DNA of 59,306 bases, filler included, from Sphacelaria rigidula (taxonomy: Eukaryota): assembly GCA_964200075.2 (NCBI GenBank). It is 8 parts of 8 records of this genome, joined end to end, with 100 filler letters (N's around TTAATTAATTAA, not from the genome) between each part and the next. Parts side by side here need not be neighbours in the genome. Positions count along the whole stretch, not along the records: positions 51,982 to 59,306 come from CAXNAA020015438.1; 7 more parts are not named here. One strand, 5' to 3'. Under the pieces are notes generated by a model, which saw only the letters and a list, made by a program, of their open reading frames with translations, ran no database searches and was not told the origin of the DNA. Shown here piece by piece: positions 810 through 57,772 of the stretch. The position numbers and the translations under genes were made by a program. Each line of letters begins with the position of its first letter. The first letter of the stretch is position 1.

Positions 810-2210
810 TCACACAATGCTCATAAAATAATTACGATGAAATTCGAAGAACTCTGTGGGTAACACGTTTGTCAAGAAATCGGCATGTTGATCGTTCGAT
901 CTTACGTGGATAATTGAAATCTCTTTCCTCGACACTATTCCTCTTATAAAGTGATATCTAACGTCGATGTGCTTGGAGTTCGAGTTGGTTGTGGGAATCT
1001 GTGCTCGTTGGATGGCTCCCTGGTTGTCCTCGAACAATGAAATACACGGTTCTCCAACCTGGGGCAACATAAATTGCCATCCCTGTCTGAGAAACAATAC
1101 CTTCTTCAACACGTCAGTCATGGCTACGCACTCTGCCTCCGATCTAGACCGCATTACACATTTTTGCGTTCCAGAGGACCAAGAAACACATCCGCCCCCA
1201 AACATGATTAGCTCCCCAGATACCGAACGCCTGTCCACTGCCTTGCTGGCGTAATTTGCATCAGCAAGTGCCTGAAAGTCGCTGCAAACTTCCGCTACGG
1301 TAGGTGATCGCGAGTGCACTGGTCCGCTTCACATATCCCAAAATACCAACAGCGGCACGCCAATGAAGGATTTTGGGACACGCACAACATCCTGCCACTA
1401 CTCGCGCTGCATTAGATAAATCTGGCCGTATTTGAGTGGCCAACCATATAAGTGATCCCACCAGTTCTTTGAACGACAATTTCGGTGACTCTTCGTCGTC
1501 TCTGAACTCTTCATGCTTCACACCAGGCCTCATCGGAATACTGTTACCCTCCTCAACATTGAGTTTCCGTGCCAACTCCTCTACAAACGTTTGTTGTGAG
1601 ATACTCAGCGCCCCCCTCTCCAAATCTCTTTCATAATATAGTCCCGAATACCACCGCAGTTCTCCCAAATTCTTGATCGGTACCATTTTGTTCAGATCCT
1701 CACCAAATCTATCACATCTTTCCATATTTCCTACTGCGAAGATATCGTCTACATGTACCATGAACGTAATAGATACTTTTCCCTCCTCCATCAAACGAAG
1801 AATGCATGGGTCCGCCAAACATTGCGTGAATCCCAGTCTTTTCAACCTTGCTCCCACGTGATTGTGCCATTGCCTCGACGCTTGTCTGAGACCATATATA
1901 TTCTTATTCAATTTAACAATCTTTCTGGACAATATCCCACAACCTCAAGGTAGTCGCATCAAAATGTTTTCCTCTGACTGCACAAAAGCTCGTCCAACAT
2001 TAAAATGACGCAATGGAAGATCCTGCTCACACGCCAAGACAGCTAACGGACGGACACTCGAAATTGCTACAGTTGAAGTATACAATTCACCAAAATCTAT
2101 ATCTGCTCTTTGAATATCAACGCTTGCAACCAGTCTTGATTTCGCTTTGGTAGCTCACCCAAACTCGCCAGCCTTCCAAGTATAGACCCATTTCGCGTTA
2201 ATTTAATTAT
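810..2210 (-). pseudogene. Copia reverse transcriptase + RNase H (disrupted)
   Basis: Motifs KWVYTWK..KSRLVA, LNKNIYGLRQASRQWH, VHVDD, ADANYA..DRRSVSG, EDNQGAI..SKHIDVRYHFIR and QHADFLT, split over several frames. Confidence 0.92.
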
Positions 2211-2959
2211 GAACGGGTTGCTACTCGGCTGAACCAATTGTCCCTGCGTCTACAATACCTTGAAACTCTCGAGCCATTGAATCTACACACACACATCCAT
2301 ATTCCGGCTGTAGAGCTTATGCGCACGTCGTAGGTGTCTTCAGGTCTTCCGCTGGAATCTGTGGAATGTTCGATGTCGTGCGCGGCACATGTTTTCCCCC
2401 CATGGCGTTCCTGATATCCTCTCACGTTGCCAGCATCGTTGCGTCTCGGAACGGGATACTCCTTTGCCTCCCTGCATTGTAGTCCTGTTTCCTTCCAATG
2501 CGCGTAAGATGGGTGGACAGCAAGCATTGCTTATCCAGTTGTGATATTAGGCCCAGGTCTTGATGGATGAGTGATGTTGACATAGCCCTTCCATACAAAT
2601 ATTGTGCTATACCCGAGCGTGTCCTTCCTAGCTGTCGTGAATCTATTTCCAGATCAAGTTCCCTGACGACTCTTGGCGGGGTTGGTGAAAACGAAAAATC
2701 TTGTACGTTGGTTGTTGATAGTGGTGGACATGTTGTTGCCGATGAGATATTGGTGATAGTGCTTGTGAATCATTGAATAGTGGCGGCGATGTCGGTGATC
2801 TATCCGGATGTTGGGGTGGAATTGAAGCGGTCTACGATTATTGTTGTGTAGGCGGTCGTGGATGTGGAGAAGTGGATGATGATTGCGATCGCTGGGTTGT
2901 AGAGGTAGCACGTGGTCGTGTGTGGCGCGGTTGTTGGGCGAAGATTTTGAGAGGTGTAA

Positions 2960-3180
2960 ATCTCGGAAAGGTCGGAGCGGGGAAAGAATATGTCGGTCGC
3001 AGGATGGTCGAAGCATGTTGAAAAGAATTAGGTTTCGGCATGGTCGGAGCGGGAACGGAATATCTGGATTGAAAAGGTGTAGATCTCCGCATGGTCGGAG
3101 CGGGAATGGAATGTCTGGATTTCGGAACGGTCGGAGGGGGAGTGGGATAACTAGATTTTGGAATGGTCGGAGCGGGAGTG
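2960..3180 (-). repeat. In-frame minisatellite (PAPT repeats) in the integrase-RT linker
   Basis: GGTCGGAGCGGG-like core at 2970, 3006, 3042, 3093, 3129 and 3165; spacings 36, 36, 51, 36, 36. Confidence 0.8.
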
Positions 3181-3359
3181 GAGGGTGTAGTGTTAGCGGC
3201 GGTTGTAGGTGGTAGCCACGGTGGTGCGACAGCGGGGAAAGATTGCGGTAGTGTCGGTGCGTCGGTGGCGTCGGAGGCGGGATGATTGCTGCCCCCCGCC
3301 CCCTCCCCCCGACGTCGAGCAGTACCGGTTTGGAAAAGGGTTGACGAGGTACCGTCGAC

Positions 3360-4200
3360 GCCACATTGTTGGTGTAGCGAACGGCACCTTCGTCGGCCAT
3401 GAGAACCTTGACGGTTTTTGAGGAGTGATTGGACGTCCATCTTTGATCTTCGGGTGACGCGCATCATACCGGGCTGTAGAAAAGGTACGATTTGAAGAGG
3501 TGGCTGTCGGTCGTTGAAGACTTGTACGGCGGCAATTTGCCGGGGTTGGCCGTAGTTGCGGAGCGATTGAAACCATCAGCTGCCCAGACGGCGGCCTCTA
3601 GCCATAGACGATCCAGGTTGCCGCCTAGGTGAGGAACCTCGGCAAGATTGATGTCGAGAAACAGTCGTGACGCCTCGCAGCGCGCGGCGTGCCCGGCCTT
3701 CATCGTGCGCCAGATTGCGCTTTCAGCGCCCGCGTTCTGCTTTGGGGTATCAGGCGCGGTGTTCTCGCGGCGGATGCGGGCGTTGTCGCAGAAGTCGACG
3801 AACTCCTGGGAGAAAAACTCACCACCGTTGTCGATGCGGAAGCAGCGCGGGTTACCGAAGCGATTAATGTCAGCGAGGTAGCGTTTCACCATCGCCAAGG
3901 CGCCCACCTTCCGTGCTAGCCCGTACAGCATTATCAAACGAGATTTACTGTCAAGGCAGGCCAGCATGTACATGGACCCTCCCAGAGTGCGTGGATGGGG
4001 TCCGGTCAGATCGAGGTGCACGATGCAGATGACCGTCAAAGCTCGTAAGCCTGAGTGAGGAATACCGGCCCGTCGCCCCTTACCCTCGAAGCATCCCTCG
4101 CACGGTTCCAGTTTTCCTGTGAGGATAATGCCCCGTTGGGCGGCAATAGCTCGGAGGGTGGTCTCGTTCGAGTCGTAGAGGGATACATGAAAAAAAATGA
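3360..4200 (-). pseudogene. Copia integrase (Zn-binding region, DDE core, C-terminal remnant)
   Basis: CEGCFEGK, VHLDLTGP, RIDNGGEF, TAPDTPKQNAGAE and LWLEAAVWAADGFNRS in ORF 3464..4528. Confidence 0.92.
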
Positions 4201-4699
4201 TGTCCACTCGGCTTAGTGGTTTGCCAACCGTGAAGGGTCCTGGGTTGGGTGCCAGTACTGCAAAAGCCATGTGTGCTCTCTCCTCCTCACTCAACTCTTC
4301 AAGACACGAATATGAAGGGAAAACATCATGGGGGGAAATACTGTCTATTCCCAACAGTAGCTGCTGATCAGAAAACAAGCTGAGATCAGATTGTGGTAGC
4401 CCGGGAACAACATACAGCCCTAAAGCAACAGTAGAATCATCATCAATCGAGGGCAGACGGGGGTGGAATACTGCTGACACTCTTTTGCGGGGGAACAGAA
4501 ACAGAACCCAGGGGTATATTACGAACACTATATCCTTGGGTTTCGGAATAAGAGATCAGGGGAATGTCACTGACACTCGCTTGCTGTGGACTAGAAACAG
4601 AAACAGTATCTTTCCTGGCCGCAACAACAGGCGTAACTAAGGGCATCTGTCTGTAGGTTGACGATAGGCGTGAGGCTTGTTGTGATGAGGAACGCTCAG

Positions 4700-5100
4700 T
4701 GCAGTTAAATCGCAGTCTGCCGTTGAGTAGATGCACACCTACTTTATCACAGATGACTTGCCGGCTCTTTTGAGCCCTGTGGATAGAGAATAGGTTAAAC
4801 TGAATTCCCTCCAAAACACACACATCCGTCAGCAGTACATACACTGCATCAACATAGGGGGGGCTGTTCGCACGTGCTTGATACAATCCTGATTTGTGAC
4901 TTCCGACAGCCTTGACCGGTAGTACTGTGCCATCACCTAAAATAACACTCTCGTTCCCCGGCGGAGGGGGGCGAGTATTAAAAACGTGAGTCATGTCTCC
5001 AGGCGTATGGTGGGATGCGCCTGAGTCCGCTGTCCATACATTTGCATCAGCGACGGGCAGAGATGTGGTTCGATGCAACATGACCCTACCGCTAATATCG
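4700..5100 (-). pseudogene. Copia aspartic protease region
   Basis: VWTADSGASHH...VILGDGTVLPVKAVG...LTDVCVLEGIQFNLFSI in ORF 4443..5186. Confidence 0.85.
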
Positions 5101-5401
5101 GAATCACCCAAAGTAAAAGCTGATTTTTCTGGTGCGGCAGAAAGCGTCATGTACACATTACCACCAGGGATATCAGCACGTGGCATTGGAAATAGTCGTG
5201 GCTCGTGGCGTTTGGTACTGTTCTCGAAACAGACGGACTACCATCGCAGAGACTGTAGTATAGCAGAGGTTGCACAGTGGTAGTCAAACCACTTACTTCT
5301 GCAGCAGACAGAAAGTCCAAAGACAAATATGGTGTTTGGGGCTCTTCACTCCGGCCGAACAAAATCAAGGCAGCCTCTTTTGCAAGCAGAGTGCTGAGGA
5401 A

Positions 5402-13800: not shown

Positions 13801-15720
13801 ACATATCGGACAAACAATTATTCCCAAGTACGCGGCAACATACCTTCTTGCTCATCCGCCCGAGATTCGCGCGTCCCAACCTCTGTAGCGCCAGTTATCC
13901 GTGCTGATGTGGAGTCCTCTCTCCCAAAAAAAATTGCTCTCTTCGCACCGTATTAGACGCCTTGGAGCATGACCGTCTCGATGTGTTTTTTCCATGGATG
14001 ATTGATTAAACGCCACAAAAATCCCTCGATAATATTGAAAAGGAATAACACTGCATTACTGGGGTGCAGCACCGTCACGGAATATGTTGCACGCACGGCC
14101 CAATTCGACGAGTCTTGAGCTGAAATTTCAGGAAGACCTTCTGCACCCAAGTAACTGATACGTTCCGTGAGCAGCAGCAGATTCTACTTATTCCCCTGGA
14201 CTTATGGCGTAATCATGCGTTTTCGTAAATATAAAAATCCCCATAACTTCCCTATATTTTTGTCGGATGAAATATATTGAATTGATGTGAAGACTTGAAG
14301 CCACTGGGATAAAATATACCGAAGTAATGTGAATACTTAAAACCATACGGAAGGGGAAAACCCAGGGTATGGGAGGGACACTCCTTCGCGGAGGCATTGA
14401 TACTATAGCGCGGGGAATGTACAACAAACGCGAGGAAGACACAACATGTACAGACAAGTTTCGTGTGGGAACGGAATTGGTGTCTACCTCTACATACAAT
14501 GTCTATGCAATGACCACCTGCTACTTACCCACGCCATGCTGCTTGCAGTTTGCAGCGCTGTATACTGGTTTGGTCTAGACTACACTTTTGCGTTATCGTG
14601 TAATTTTGGGCAAATGATCACCAATCAATTTTTGACCTGTGCCAGGTTCAAAGCTTCTAAATATTGCTCACACCACAGCTTCCCCAGTTTCCCGAATGAA
14701 CCCGATGTAAGCATATCACTGTGAACTGCTGACCCACCTGATGAGAAAGGACNNNNNNNNNNNNNNNNNNNNNNNNNNNNNNNNNNNNNNNNNNNNTTAA
14801 TTAATTAANNNNNNNNNNNNNNNNNNNNNNNNNNNNNNNNNNNNNNNNNNNNACATGCAACGCCTTCGATGTGTTTTCTGACAGCCGTCATGTTCAAGTC
14901 CGCAGCGTACCACCTGATTTGTGGGGGTTCTTCCCACCCACCGTGTTCACCACACACGGTACTTGACCCTGCTATACGCGGATGTTCGGCTTCTCCACTT
15001 GACAGCGGTTATCACGATATCTTTCTTTACGCAGGGGGAGCACTATACGCTGAGATATCCTTGCTGGCATGCACGCGATGTTGGCTGAAACATGATGAAA
15101 AAAAGCGACGGAATCACGACTTCTCTCTATTTTCAGTATAAAATTCAAAAACTACGGATCTTGAAAATATCAGACGCTAACTTCTGTAGCACGGACAGCT
15201 CCAGCTTGCGCGGTTACCTGTACCTCCGTTTGGGCTAAAATATGTGGTGATGCACCCACTTCTGCGTTTTGCCCAGAAAAAAAACAAAATGATTCACTCG
15301 TTTGAGCATGAATCGAAACCGTATTTGAGCATGGACAGTCAGCTCTGAAATAATGAAACAGATAAACAACATGAACAGTCAGAACCATCTTCAAAATCAA
15401 ATTCATTTCAATTCTTCCTCTCGATGAAACGGGGCAAAGGTGCTGGTGTGTTGCTGTGAGGATATCACATTCAGGGGTACCCACAGCCTGCACGGCTTGA
15501 CCCCAGCACTCCTTGCGGTGTCTTCGGTCTGCAAATACCCAAAGCACTCAACCCGTGATACTGTAACTTCAGATCGCAAGGTTCAACCACCAAATCCCAA
15601 TTCTAACGTGTCCGTATTTAGTACACTATCTACGGTAGTTTCCGTCTCAGAACGCGAAACCGGCTTTCATGTGCGGCAAGAGACGGTAGCCGCTCAGACG
15701 ATACAAGATAGCTATTGAAA

Positions 15721-50982: not shown

Positions 50983-52003
50983 GGGGGGTGTACTCATGAT
51001 CATGAATGCCATAGCCATGTGACCATGCCTCGCATCCCTACAAAGCGGGGACGGAGCACGCCGGGGTTTTCCGCCCGACCAGGTCCGTACTCAGTCACCA
51101 AGCGCGAAGCGCGGTGGTGTGTGCGGCGAGTCGCATGAAGGGTGAGCTGCATCCTGCTAAGATTGTTCGAGCCGAAGTCTTTTGATTGGTTACCTTGCGT
51201 TTGGATGACAGCCTACAATGAGTTGCTTCATTTTCTGGTATCGCCACCTCCAGAGACAACCACGGCTTATACACTGCCTCATGGGTGCTTGACCATTGAA
51301 ACTCTAACACTATTATTAGACGTAGTACGATCATCCGTACGATCATCCCCATTGTGCGGAGTTGAAGTTCTCCCACGCCGCACAACATGATCTAGCTCGA
51401 CTACCATTATGATTACCGCAAAAAAAACACAATCGCGCAAAAAAAAATCAACCTGGTTGCCTAGCTTACGCACAGGCGTGTTCTATAGCGACGACATCGC
51501 AAATCGACGCCAGCCCCATCGGGGGTCCGCCCCTACAAAGCCGGGACGGAGCACGCCGGGTTCTCGCCGGACCAGGCTGAGAACCCTCCTAATCGAGTAT
51601 ACTCACACTCAATGTTGGATACACGCGGACAGGCCTGGATGAGTTGGAAATGGATATTGTGATTGGATTATGACATATGGGTGAAGGGCATAGAAGAAAT
51701 ACAGTTCTGTTATTAAAGGTATTCCCGATATGTTGGTTGCAGTAAGAATCTGTTGGAGGCACACGCTCAGCGCGTGGCCAAGGAATTAGGACCTGACGTG
51801 TTACTTTTGGATGAGTGGCTCTTTACGATTGACCCAGCCCCCCTTTTTGGCACTACATGTTTCTGGATTTTTACGTACAAGNNNNNNNNNNNNNNNNNNN
51901 NNNNNNNNNNNNNNNNNNNNNNNNNTTAATTAATTAANNNNNNNNNNNNNNNNNNNNNNNNNNNNNNNNNNNNNNNNNNNNGCAGGCAGATAGGACGTTT
52001 ATA

Positions 52004-52964
52004 CACCCTGGACAATATAATGTGTAATACATATTGCCCGCTCAAGATATGGACGCGTCGGGTGGTCAATATATATTGGGCGAGAAATATGATGGCACGA
52101 GAGAGGGTTAACATATATTGTGCCATTAATATGTCAAGGCTCCCGACATCCAATATGTATCGACGGAACAACACATCACGACATGCGCCACCTCAATATA
52201 TATTGGCCGAGTAATATGTTGGTGCGAGAAGGCACCAATATATGCATCTATCGAGTAGTATATTGGCTGCCACCCGAGGTCAATATATATATATATATAT
52301 ATATATTGATGATTCAATATACTCGACACTCGAAGCGCCAATATATATTGCCGCCCCAATATGTGGTGCGTCAATGCGTCCGATATATAGTGGGCGGACA
52401 ATACACGAGGGAACCGACGGTCACAATACATACTGGTGTAGCAAAATATGTTGAGTTTCAGCATGTGGATTAGAAGTTGTTCTGGAATCAGTATGGTGGG
52501 CAACTCTATGTTCGCGGGCGCCATTGAAAGATGTAAGACCACATGCCGAAAACGCTCATTACATTCCTCCGCAAGCGTGTACAATATATATTGGTTGCTC
52601 AATAGCTATCCGATGAGCGTGCGCAATATATATTGGAAAAAAACAATACTTCTGCATGGTTTGCGTTCAACATATATTTTGGTAACAATATGCTACGCAT
52701 TGCTTCGACTCAATATATATATTGACACTTCAATACATACACGACTGGCATGCACAATATATATTGAGTGTTTTATTCCCCGAGCAAACGCATGTCCACT
52801 ATATGTTGTCATACATTACTTGATCATGACACGAGCAATATATGTTGTTGCTTCAATGTCTCCGAGGACATCTCAACACAAAACATTTTGAAGGGACACT
52901 ATTTGAGCTGGCTCCAGTACAAAGTATTGGTATCATACTGAAACGCTGTGTATTGTCCAGGGTA
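52004..52964 (+). mobile_element. Complete family C non-autonomous TIR element (CACTA/EnSpm-like termini, TA flanks)
   Basis: TA|CACCCTGGACAATA...TATTGTCCAGGGTA|TA (13/14 TIR match); internal 42-43-bp phased array. Confidence 0.82.
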
Positions 52965-55296
52965 TAGCAACACAGCCCCGGTGATCGCAGTGGTACCAAA
53001 AGGCGCATGTTGACCCGTGGTTTCTGTCATCGTAAGGTTTAGCCAAGATACATTAGTTAAATGCTGGGAAGGGGATGGGCGACCCCGCACCGGCGGCCAG
53101 ATAGGTATCAGGAGGCATATGTACCGGGTCGCCTCTCCTGTCACCATATTTTCTGACCAGTACATATACATACATGCATCATTTCACAATTTTCACCACT
53201 TTTGCCGAGTTTTCTCTGGCGACAAGGCATTTTATCCCGTGCTTTCTTTTGCAGTGCACGAAGAAGGCGCAGCGGTACAATACTGTCCTGGTTTGGGTGC
53301 CATCTAATACCTGTGGCGCGTGTCCTAACCATCAGAAGTCGCCCACACAGGCTTTTTTTCTCGGGGTGTCGATCCTGAACCACAAAAGCCTCACCAAGAT
53401 CGTGGAAAACTCCAAACAAGAACTACAAAAGCCCACTCATGGCGGGGTATTTTTTCACCGTGATTTTCTTTGCGTTCTCGATGATTTGGGGACACGAAGA
53501 CAGTGTTTATGCAGCGAATGTCACGAGAACATGAGAGCAAAGCAATTGAAAACAGCTGGACATTGCCTTGACTTAGTCACCAGCAAACACAAGTCGAATG
53601 ATCTGAGATTCTTCATGATTTAGTTTTGACGTGAGGCCTCTAACACGGTCATATCTGCCTAATGTATGCCCCAATTATGCAAACATACCGCTCAACAAAA
53701 ACATGGCGAAGAACACTGAATGATGTGTAGATTGGTATTAGAGGAAGGGGCCACAGGCACAGCTGTAGCAGGGGAAGTCGCTGATGGCCCGGTCTGCATT
53801 CGTACGGTGAATACCCACGGTGCGTGGCATATGTTTTTTACACCCTGCTGTTTGATGACGGCTAGATAGAGTGGATACAGTGACAGTTGAGTACGCAGGC
53901 TGCGACGGATCCTGCCGGCCTCATCATCAGTCTCCGCCCAGTTATGGACAAACACTCGAAGGAACCCAGCAAACAAGCATCGTTTGTGGTCCGCTATCAA
54001 GGTCTATGTGAGGATTGGGAGCTGAACATTTCCGCTTCAAAAATCTCGACAGTCAAAGATTAAGCTCCTGTCGCGCGACCAGTGGGTAGTGCCACGGACC
54101 CTTGCCGGCGTACCGGGCACTGGGGGCGACATCGCGGTACAGATAGTCCCATCACTACCGGGACGGCCGTGCAAACAGGCCGGCAGCCGGAATGGCCGTT
54201 ACACTGGTGTTCTTCTAGCGTTATCAACTTAGAGTACGGCCGCACAGGTTTTGCACGCGAACATTTCGGTGATTGCCTCACTTCCACTTCGGCCATGTGC
54301 TGTGGATTATTTCACGACCTCACCGCCTGATATGTATGGGAATTTATTGAATCCTAGACAAGAGCCTTCTACAGTCTGTATACAATTCAAAAGCATGTAC
54401 TCTGCACAGTACAGTATAGAAGCTACTGCCTTCTGCGACATGCATAAGACTCGTACAAAAGAGGGAACTGGGCGTAGTATGACTTCAAGACGGTGCAAGA
54501 ATCTCCACGCGGCATGAAATGTTACAGCCGGCTTGCGCGCCACAGCAGCTGCGTTCCATCCGCTCAAGATACAGGCAGGACTTATAGCGGCAGAGGCGGC
54601 CTATTACTCTTGCGTGCGCCACCTAGGGCAAATGCACACTCAGCTGAAATACCGAGCGCTGTACTAGATGTGGCAGAGCGAGCGGTGGTACACCACGTAC
54701 ACTCAGACAGCAAGCAGTATCATATATATATATATATATACTGCATACAAGTGTGATTTGAAGTTCGTGCGCGCGGGATCGGGCCGGCATTTAGAGAACC
54801 CTGCATAGGTTCGCCGTGTACTACCGGTACGCGATCTTATTTCAGTAGCAATCACTTGCGATGTGTGCTGTGACGGGTCTCGTGTGTGAGGGTGTTTTTC
54901 CACCTCCACACACCGCCCGTGGAGCTAGCTCTTCATGTTGGAAGTGTCCACCGCTCTTCCCGCCACTCTTGGTCTAAGATAAATGAAGCTGCGGAATGTG
55001 GCAATAACTACTGGAAGGTACATATTCTCCCACACGACTGCCTCCATAATATGAAAAAGGAATAGCACTGTTATATTTTCGACTTGCGTCACCCCCGGGA
55101 GGCCAGTGCCAACCTCCCAAAGGGGAAACTTGTATATATATGTGTGTGTGCGTGTGTGTCAAACTCATTCGACAACTCCCCGTAGTACTGCACACGAACT
55201 TCTGCGACGCCATTTGAAACTTTTCCCAATCTGCACGGGCTCCGGCATCGATCGCGTCCGGATCTTTCTCAAAGCGCACACCATACTTATATTATC

Positions 55297-55640
55297 CAAT
55301 ATATACTGCGCGACCGATACATTGGCACCCACGCAGACCCAATATATATTGACCGGTCTATATGTTCTCATCAATGGGACCGTAATATATATTAGTCGTG
55401 CAATATGCTGTCGCCCACGCTGCCTCAATATATATTGATGGGACAATATGTGTTCGACCCCATTGCATCAATATATATTGGGCGGGTAATATGTATGCAG
55501 ACTCACGCCATCAATATCTACTGGGCGCACAAGACGTGTGCAGTCGAAGGGTACCAATATATATTGCACCGGCAATTTATCGCAAAATTCCAATGTGATC
55601 GACTAATATATATTGGAAACATATTGTATTGTCCAGGGTG
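55297..55640 (+). mobile_element. Right arm of a family C-related element with an exact 43-bp array
   Basis: Palindromes at 55297, 55340, 55383, 55426, 55469, 55512 and 55555; ends ATATTGTATTGTCCAGGGTG|TG. Confidence 0.82.
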
Positions 55641-57772
55641 TGGTATAAATACGATGTATAATAGATGTATATATATAATTATATATATGAGGATCTTTAC
55701 TGTCTACGGCAGCTGACCGCATCCGGCAGCGCTTCGGCAAAAAACCAGGGGACACACGGCTGGGTGTCCCCCCCCCCCGTCCCCCTCAAAAACTCGATAT
55801 TTCGATGTTGGGGCCTACGTGTCCTGATTTTTCTTCATTCGCTGCCCCCTGAGCCAATCGACGAAAATCATCTCGTCAGTTTCCCCCCCGATTTTGATAC
55901 CTTGACCGTTTGTTACTGGAAATTCAAGTTTGATCACAAACAAAGCTGTGACCTACGGGAAACGCAAAGATGCTCTGATGGAACGGTCTCGGCGAGTAGA
56001 GCAAGTCATTCCAACGTGTCAACATCCATCCGCCTTTAGTCCTCTTCTCGGGGGAAAAACGACGGAGAAGGGCCAAAAGGGTACTTTACAGCATTTTTAA
56101 TTTTTGATACATAAGGAGTAGCCTTGGAAACGACTGCACAAGCGTAATATTTTACGCTGGGAAATACTGCACGGCTGCGTTCTCCGGAGTCGCAACAAAT
56201 GCCCTAGAGGCCATAGTCAGTCCCTCCTCCAGAGGAGTGATGCTCATTTTCCCCTCTGATGTTCATCTTTCCCTCCAAGGGACGTCTACAGGCTGTTTAA
56301 CGCTCATCACCCAAAATTGTGTCATCATCAAATGCCTTTCGCAATACCTACCCTATAGTCGCATACATGATATGATACTGACCGCCATGGACAGCTGAAG
56401 AGCGTTATATAACCGGATTGAGTGTAAGGCCATAGTGTTAGCGCTGAGGGCGAAAAGGTATATCGTCCAATCAGCGCCCGTCCAATTTTTCCGAGATCGA
56501 AATTACGAATTGCAAGCCCAATTTCCACCCAACCTCCACATGCTTCAAATCGTAGTAACCGTCATCGGCTCAGGAATCCAACAAAAAAACATATCTGAAA
56601 ACGGTTACTACGGGGTCGAATTATACCCAAAACCGTGATGTGTCGGTGATGTCGGGTGTTGTCGTTTAATTTCCACTAATGATACGCACGAAAGACCCAG
56701 CGAGCCTCGTGACGGTGTCCCCTACATCTGTTGTCGAAAAGCTCAGATTACCTTCAAACTTGGTAGGTGTGTAGGTATTGATGCTCCAAATGGAAAAATT
56801 GTGTTCTTAGCAAGGGTTTAAAGTTTCTCCGTTCGCTACCGGCTTCCGAGGGTTCCAGTATGGAGACAACCGGGAGGCGGTACAGAATGCCCTAAAGGAA
56901 ATATAATAAAGTGATGCGTCCTGGGATCGTCCAAGGAACACATGTACGAACCTTGTCGCAGAAACCCGAGAACCTCATACAGTTTTTCTTGCCTTGGCGT
57001 GGAATTCAGCGATAAAGACATTTACATACTAAAACCAAGTAGTTAAAAGTTGCACGTTTCGAGCCCACGTCCTCCACAAACTCGCAAACCTTGACGCCGT
57101 TATCGGGAGTTAGAACCTAAAACGTTGCGAAAATATGCTATGTATCACTACGAAACGTTTTTCGGATCATGCTATTTCACTTCTTGAGTTTTTCACCGTT
57201 TTCCGGGGGTCCGACGGGGGTCAAGCTTGTGTCTTTGAAGCAGTCTCGCTTCCGGGACCCGGGAAAACCGGCACGACGTTTTTTTTTTTCATTTTATCGT
57301 GAGCGAGCTGTCCCCGCATAACCCGAGGAAGGGTCACACAAATGTTTGGCGCAAAAATCGATCAACTGATGCTTGAATTTTCATGTTCACGTCAAAGAAG
57401 GCCCATAATCGCCGCTTTCGTACTAAAATTAGGTAGTTTGAGGTCACCCTGCGGCACGTCAGAGTTCATTGCACGGAAGCAAAATCCTCATGCCATTTTC
57501 AGGAGGTACACCGTGAACGTTTGCACAGCTGTGCTATGGGTCATTACACAACTTCGGATGAACGAGGTTTTTCGATTTATTCTTCTTTACCGTTTTACAG
57601 GGGTCCGATTGGATCGATGTTTCCCGGTAAAAGCTGGGACCCCCGAAAAACGGTGGAAAAACTCAAAAAGTCGAAAAACCTCGACCTTATAAAGTTGCGT
57701 TATGCCCCATAGAAGATCTATGCAAAATTTCAGCGTCTAACTCCTTGAAACGGCGTGAGGTTTTGCCGATGA

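Follow-up and report, generated by a model that had tools for sequence, protein, structure and literature searches.

Three arrays of a 42-43-bp unit in a non-autonomous hAT element of Sphacelaria rigidula as putative transposase-binding modules

A contig of the Sphacelaria rigidula assembly (244 Mb in 27,214 contigs) begins with a palindrome that recurs every 42 to 43 bp between variable segments, which raises the question of what kind of element carries such an array and what keeps it in phase. The window analysed here is a stretch of 59,306 nucleotides composed of eight contigs joined by N linkers; the array stands at the start of the last contig, with a left flank of only 20 bases. In the first-pass annotation it had been described as an element with terminal inverted repeats (TIRs) at positions 52004 to 52964. 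We used this segment as the query of a homology search in which the best 40 of 573 candidates were scored. Of the 29 other top-scoring copies, 28 have homology that extends beyond 52964, is interrupted by a gap at 53176-55131 and resumes in 55131-55650, so that the presumed right end at 52951-52966 is an internal copy of the TIR and the real extent is 52002-55642. The 29th copy, C8055, has the insertion at 53176-55131 as the stretch copy does; because the two also have both flanks in common, at 92% identity, they represent one insertion. The features are as follows.

52002..55642, plus strand: whole non-autonomous hAT copy, interrupted by a nested insertion; about 1.65 kb long in the family; no recognisable target site duplication (TSD) here
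52002..52017, plus strand: left TIR, CACACCCTGGACAATA in the family, with T as first base in the stretch copy
52025..52465, plus strand: array A1 of 10 units; consensus period 42.3 bp on average; the unit at 52281 has a TA expansion
52582..52920, plus strand: array A2, 8 units, mean period 42.3 bp
52951..52966, minus strand: inner TIR copy, TATACCCTGGACAATA when read on the minus strand; does not serve as an end; has counterparts in families D and N2
52967..53175, plus strand: first part of the unique middle segment, with an (AT)n tract at its end
53176..55132, unstranded: nested insertion of about 2 kb, an unrelated TA-targeting repeat ending in CTTGT; outside the family consensus
55133..55296, plus strand: unique middle segment, second part
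55297..55615, plus strand: array B, 7 units at 43 bp, with a last palindrome 49 bp further; orientation as in A1 and A2
55627..55642, minus strand: right TIR
43566..44209, plus strand: second, truncated copy of the 1.65-kb family on another contig; consensus positions 1-642, 90% identical

The exact 23-base end pattern of the 1.65-kb family occurs 134 times in the genome. Its consensus, from 32 copies, has 1,648 bp and the order A1, A2, inner inverted TIR, unique middle segment of about 360 bp and array B. The mean divergence of copies from the consensus (6.6%), together with the near star-shaped tree of the copies, points to an old burst. Among the copies, mutation at CpG sites is no faster than at the remaining C/G sites (C>T 0.060 versus 0.046; G>A 0.048 versus 0.058), in line with little DNA methylation. 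The stretch is absent from runs on record as RNA; contigs from four runs that we guessed to be RNA cover it, which says nothing on expression. A 1,911-nt contig from two of these four runs was considered as a fusion to other sequence and was rejected, as its loose end continues as the element.

The CTTGT-ending repeat inserts into TA tracts and is also found in loci L039, L044, L085, L175 and L180, at different TA sites of copies of the 1.65-kb family. It is possibly Helitron2-like, judged by the pattern that an Ectocarpus table gives for possible Helitron2 families. Elsewhere in the window, decayed open reading frames with Copia-type retrotransposon motifs, by inspection, lie at 810-5237 and 38323-42512.

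That the array belongs to a TIR element is borne out by the termini and by the duplications across copies. The family ends in the 16-bp core TIR CACACCCTGGACAATA and its complement, beginning with CACAC, and in public contigs loose ends with mixed flanks pile up at the two outer element ends. Among 48 distinct two-ended copies, an 8-bp TSD is exact in 24 and has at most one mismatch in 36, compared with a mean of 1.9 for random pairing; no TSD signal was present in these copies at any other length within 2-11 bp. Their target-site consensus is the palindrome RAATATTY. The TIRs of hAT elements are short and start with (C/T)A. From the CACAC termini and the 8-bp TSDs the element is a non-autonomous hAT with three arrays, and non-autonomous hATs with subterminal repeats are an already known kind. 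The earlier assignment to CACTA/EnSpm, as an element of 961 bp with short TSDs, drew on the CAC termini, which are indeed present, and the EnSpm families of Ectocarpus end in CACCC, CACAG or CACTG and have 2-bp TSDs (PMC12477816 supplement 1). We regard this assignment as practically untenable: 2-bp duplications occur in just 3 of the 48 copies and a 3-bp match in one, variable flanks do not delimit a 961-bp unit, and the identical TIR flanks an hAT transposase. CAC termini are not diagnostic of CACTA, since those of the Ectocarpus element hAT-2_Ec32 are CACAC-GTGTG (PMC12477816 supplement 1). By its table row alone, hAT-2_Ec32 / hAT-2_ESi resembles our family in these termini, a short TIR, an hAT transposase and an assumed 8-bp TSD, and differs from it as a single autonomous copy of 8,945 bp whose row lists neither arrays nor an inner TIR (PMC12477816).

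An 8-bp TSD, as found in the 1.65-kb family, is also a feature of KDZ/Zisupton elements in the available part of the source (PMC12730594). When this superfamily was considered, the ends of the family were found around an hAT gene (family D, below). The KDZ profile PF18758 had no match in the genome, yet none in the control genomes either, and the same holds for profile PF04937.

How the inner TIR behaves was read from 30 loci, fetched out of 214 exact hits for its 16-base form. A fixed, family-specific flank lies outside it in 29 of them, and the remaining one resembles the terminus of a MITE; the inner TIR is unused as an end in the loci read. In L040 it is followed by a 699-aa open reading frame, which was examined as a partner transposase and rejected as a nested insertion on account of its Copia reverse-transcriptase motifs (by inspection).

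All 25 units of the consensus have a single orientation and the same anatomy, namely the 12-bp palindrome, six variable bases, a six-base site like CAATAT and a further 18 or 19 variable bases. The palindrome CAATATATATTG, allowing two mismatches, has 18 matches in 52004-52964, where 1000 first-order Markov resamples averaged 0.34 and never exceeded 3. Fifteen of the 16 motif starts listed in the first-pass annotation lie within two mismatches of CAATATATATTG; the one at 52236 has four. The phased array it described is real, but the units at 52836 and 52879 and the third array at 55297-55604 had been missed. The third site, earlier written as N7-AATATR, is exact at just 5 of these 16 positions of the decayed stretch copy, and is at most one mismatch away from CAATAT in 23 of the 25 consensus units. 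Between units the palindromes are 95% and the third sites 78% identical. The motifs are A+T-rich and the spacers have 57% G+C; the motif core CAATA also occurs within the TIR. Distances between motifs do peak at this period: of the 863 steps from one motif to the next in 58 near-full copies, 512 measure 42 or 43 bp and a further 97 measure 84-87 bp. At 10.5 bp per turn, sites 42.3 bp apart drift by about 10-11 degrees per unit, so that the proposal of sites on one face of the DNA holds for A1 and A2 and fits poorly for the 43-bp array, with 34 degrees per unit. Exact scans for a two-palindrome unit gave no match in viral contigs and none in metagenome contigs.

The spacers had been taken as mutually dissimilar. 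They are in fact faintly homologous, being 34% identical to one another against 30% for shuffles (none of 2000 reached the observed value), and 19 of 300 spacer pairs agree at no fewer than 13 of 24 positions, where 2.3 are expected. Similarity is highest between neighbours and falls from 0.39 at lag 1 to 0.29 at lag 6. This residual homology, strongest between neighbours, indicates common ancestry of the units and their spread through tandem duplication. In 110 aligned pieces, which come from 89 loci, there are 21 deletions of exactly 42 bp, some of them common to 3-8 copies, whereas insertion of a whole unit was seen once in 57 near-full copies; a divergent relic contains two nearly identical adjacent units. 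The alternation of a conserved palindromic repeat with variable segments had suggested a repeat-spacer array. We give virtually no credence to a CRISPR-like array that acquires foreign spacers, as the array lies inside a TIR element with TSDs, 51982-55700 has no Rfam match, and acquisition is ruled out by units that are related to each other and by copies that lose whole units and almost never gain one. Mutual alignment of the spacers also speaks in part for an old decayed minisatellite, but plain decay cannot explain 95% identity of the palindromes beside 34% of the spacers.

Whether the motifs are under selection was read from a tree of the 67 loci (of 89) that cover at least 1,200 consensus positions, with the (AT)n tract excluded. 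Terminal branches of this tree record decay after insertion and internal branches the lineages still transposing. On terminal branches the numbers of changes per site are similar, with 2.87 for the palindrome, 2.93 for the third site, 3.11 and 2.73 for the two spacer segments and 2.96 elsewhere. The ratios of internal to terminal changes are 0.032 for the palindrome and 0.050 for the third site, compared with 0.122 and 0.133 for the spacers and 0.116 elsewhere. Motifs and spacers thus decay equally after insertion, while on transposing branches the motifs change about three times less. The contrast between motif and spacer is present with the base classes kept apart (odds ratio 0.25 for A/T sites alone and 0.43 for G/C sites alone) and persists when the tree uses non-array sites only, its weak nodes being collapsed (ratio 0.33, p<=0.0002 by site permutation). 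The inner TIR is likewise constrained on internal branches, with 3 internal versus 106 terminal changes, which are small numbers; the outer TIR was left out because many copies had been chosen by exact TIR match.

Selection on the spacing is less direct than selection on the motifs. The motifs could be transposase sites, with the period of 42-43 bp inherited from an ancestral minisatellite and the unit length kept by turnover of whole units, with no selection on spacing. Spacers that are homologous and most alike between neighbours, the exact 42-bp deletions and the relic with its two adjacent units would all follow from such an origin, and since whole-unit deletions are common, the mechanism by itself maintains part of the phase. 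However, N6 and N18/19 are kept in 25 of 25 units despite near-saturated spacers, over whose divergence some 5-9 indels of more than 1 bp would be expected from the rate after insertion, against none seen; this estimate is rough, as the units are defined by phase, and the phase is broken by two gaps of 157 and 49 bp. A merely inherited period appears unlikely to us, and the families described below bear on it further.

The earlier proposal to look for an autonomous partner with the ends of this element led to an hAT. The hAT dimerisation family has at least 139 matches in the genome (150 candidates scored of 248), and the named matches of a transposase exon of this genome are proteins of Ectocarpus, Scytosiphon and Hapterophycus, which fits a host that is likely a brown alga. 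The hunt for the partner covered 30 hAT loci and 42 contigs chosen via them or by exon searches. In three of the contigs and loci read, the transposase is carried by an element that ends in the 16-bp TIR, identical at 16 of 16 bases to that of the 1.65-kb family (family D). A search with the left end of D gave a whole copy with both TIRs (C9129:1078-7856; 6,779 bp), flanking bases duplicated at 7 of 8 positions and a spliced gene in decay; none of the D reading frames seen was intact. When 964 open reading frames were compared with a profile built from 23 brown-algal hAT proteins, the D exons matched with E-values down to 5e-22; this profile itself matches Hermes at 3e-19, and one D exon is 56% identical to a kelp protein. 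Against Pfam PF05699, family D alone remains below the cut-off (E 0.16), and P0034 alone has no hAT match in Pfam or PDB.

The left, right and intronic arrays of family D show autocorrelation peaks at lag 42-43, above the shuffle maximum; the intronic array, behind the inner TIR, is found in three copies and is absent from C9129. Each D unit consists of a 12-bp CAAT-N4-ATTG quasi-palindrome, N7 and a third CAATA-like site. D and the 1.65-kb family hence have in common the TIR, the grammar of CAAT-N4-ATTG plus third site and the plan of left, inner and right modules, and differ in the distance of the third site from the palindrome (7 bases in D, 6 in the 1.65-kb family). A second non-autonomous hAT family, N2 (L289:282-2107 and L280; 1.76-1.83 kb), has three modules with a period of 43 bp in the two copies examined, one of which has a perfect TSD; its ends are closer to family D than to the 1.65-kb family. 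Clear alignment of the 1.65-kb family with D or N2 is limited to the TIRs and, at the inner one, some 20-28 bases. As D aligns clearly only in the 16-bp TIR, it may be a sister or a mobiliser of the 1.65-kb family rather than its proven parent. Both would descend from a common D-like autonomous ancestor, with loss of the gene segments between the three modules.

Ten aligned D exons show a zinc-finger pattern C-x5-C...H-x3-H, the last His being cut off in two of them. The finger has no BED family match in Pfam and no sequence match in PDB. A fold search retrieved BED domains at Z 2.0-2.9, tied with unrelated folds, and Foldseek retrieved nothing at E<=0.001 for the predicted zinc-finger model, whose mean pLDDT is 64.6.

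Two MITE families of 170 bp (L092:1352-1521 and L103:1501-1670) and about 140 bp (L133:4141-4277) have the CACACCYTGGACAA end and no arrays. A 21-base pattern of the 170-bp MITE has 374 exact hits versus the 134 of the 1.65-kb pattern, two patterns that differ in strictness. An array-less MITE with the identical TIR that is at least as common means that arrays are not required to move.

Some further arrangements of hAT ends were noted. Locus L268 (C13455) holds two family D halves in tandem, the right array running into the left array, as if recombined through the common array, and L254 contains a 536-bp element made of both family D ends and one merged array. The hAT at C8403 and C19620, one insertion by its common flanks, was tried as a partner for its 14-bp TIR match and rejected, as its own end lies about 300 bp further in and a CAATA array is absent. 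In L081 (about 3220 and 2922), the own end of a family A hAT is accompanied by a second end of CACACCCTGGACAA type about 300 bp outside, which is either a MITE remnant or a captured end.

Other hAT families of this genome end in CACAC-N3-GGAYA or a close variant, and four of them, with unrelated motifs, keep the period. At the right ends, two loci each were examined in families A, C and E, and all six show autocorrelation peaks at 42-43 or 84-86 above the shuffle maximum, with family A at 43, C at 42/85 and E at 42; a sliding scan adds family F with 43 (3 loci) and single weak windows in G (86) and H (42). One family does not share it: in B, periodicity of the right end is absent from four of four loci. 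The array motifs are TGAGCTA in C, TTCAT-N5-ATGAA in E and of the G+C-rich CGAGCACTCGAG type in F. Arrays of different families do not align with each other; for pairs without the 1.65-kb family or D the best E-value is 0.017. In the dimerisation region the transposases are 27-54% identical in pairs (76% for B and E), and the families are spread over a 28-row tree of this region whose deep branches are poorly supported. Of 31 periodic regions in 314 kb of hAT-bearing contigs, 19 are of the 42/43 class; in the 372 kb taken from other loci it is 8 of 34 (p=0.003; the regions are not independent), and these 8 mostly have the same motifs or ends as hAT families. In the window itself, a 43-bp periodic region with family A-like words lies at 29100-29500, and the next contig has the cut end of another element with this type of TIR (29705-29768). 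Tandem repeats of other sequences, with periods of 42 and 41, lie at 14265-14345 and 35958-36104.

The young two-unit repeat of 84-85 bp in family C resembles the whole-unit turnover that an inherited period would require, but persistence of the period across families with deeply diverged motifs and transposases argues against it. The same comparison bears on a host ligand. Arrays that bind a host protein or shape chromatin, through A+T-rich motifs alternating with G+C-rich spacers, could help copies to transpose or to escape silencing, and the constraint on internal branches leaves the protein unnamed. We consider this quite improbable, as sister families keep the period with unrelated G+C-rich motifs, which indicates a family-specific binder rather than base composition, and CAATA is also part of the TIR. 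The earlier idea of a protein-binding scaffold, in which motif and spacing are kept while the spacers diverge, is supported by both the constraint on the tree and the period in sister families.

We assume that a partner hAT transposase would bind the units of the 1.65-kb hAT with its N-terminal zinc finger, and that selection has kept these putative binding modules since they probably made the copies better substrates; from the sequence comparisons above we consider this reading probable. A D-like autonomous hAT would have lost the gene segments between its three modules and become non-autonomous, with arrays that grow by tandem duplication and turn over by whole units. One unit, with two CAATA sites forming a palindrome and a third site, could then dock three zinc fingers as the left end of Hermes does, and arrays of such units would raise the chance of capturing transposase. 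The spacing of the arrays is likely set by the geometry of the enzyme. The most speculative step, for which we see about even odds, is that the four-turn period reflects the distance at which a transposase oligomer repeats along the DNA, from which a period that stays fixed while the motif changes between families would follow. Against docking on such a lattice stand the array-less MITEs, the aperiodic family B, the zinc finger with its equivocal likeness to BED and the drift of the 43-bp array. A broader model, which we put forward tentatively and hold to be somewhat less probable than not, would extend this to the brown-algal hAT clade with CACAC-N3-GGAYA ends: these ends would form a fixed four-turn lattice with a period of 42-43 bp set by the oligomer, one three-finger module per unit and a site that co-evolves with the zinc finger, and in the CAATA families a third lattice behind the uncut inner TIR would act from within the transposase gene to load or titrate its product.

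The comparison with Hermes relies on the accessible text of PMC10368747. At the Hermes left end, three BED domains bind a quasi-palindromic pair and a third repeat (STR1-3) over about 47 bp spanned by the octamer, and a shift of 1 bp impairs cleavage. Hermes thus resembles the 1.65-kb family in its 8-bp TSD, in the palindromic pair with a third site and in the importance of exact phasing. It differs in that a single module stands beside its left TIR, where we find 25 units at 42-43 bp in three arrays, one of them behind the inner TIR. Herves, Ac, Tol2 and Tag1, in the portions available of PMC3143072 and PMC10368747, have scattered or few subterminal repeats, not a fixed four-turn lattice across families. 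The best functional analogue is Muta1, along with type 2 foldback elements (MULE), with a conserved subterminal repeat and variable linkers; as far as the available text of PMC5499845 goes, more subterminal repeats lead to more binding and excision, and one repeat per end suffices. Muta1 belongs to another superfamily and has a 12-bp repeat, linkers of 3-4 bp and long mirror-image TIRs, unlike the non-mirror arrays at 42-43 bp described here. A full-text literature search, read by titles and starts of abstracts and lying outside Repbase, Dfam and most subscription journals, found neither a fixed four-turn period across motif families nor a conserved inner TIR module. According to the part of their preprint available, the Hermes authors state that data on multimerisation of other hAT transposases on their ends are lacking.

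If the period were merely inherited, the element would be an ordinary non-autonomous hAT with unusually tidy subterminal repeats. A 42-43-bp period across families with unrelated motifs would instead be a sequence read-out of transposase geometry, and a testable one. With the contrast between internal and terminal branches, the cis-acting bases of a dead transposon can be mapped from nothing but genome data.
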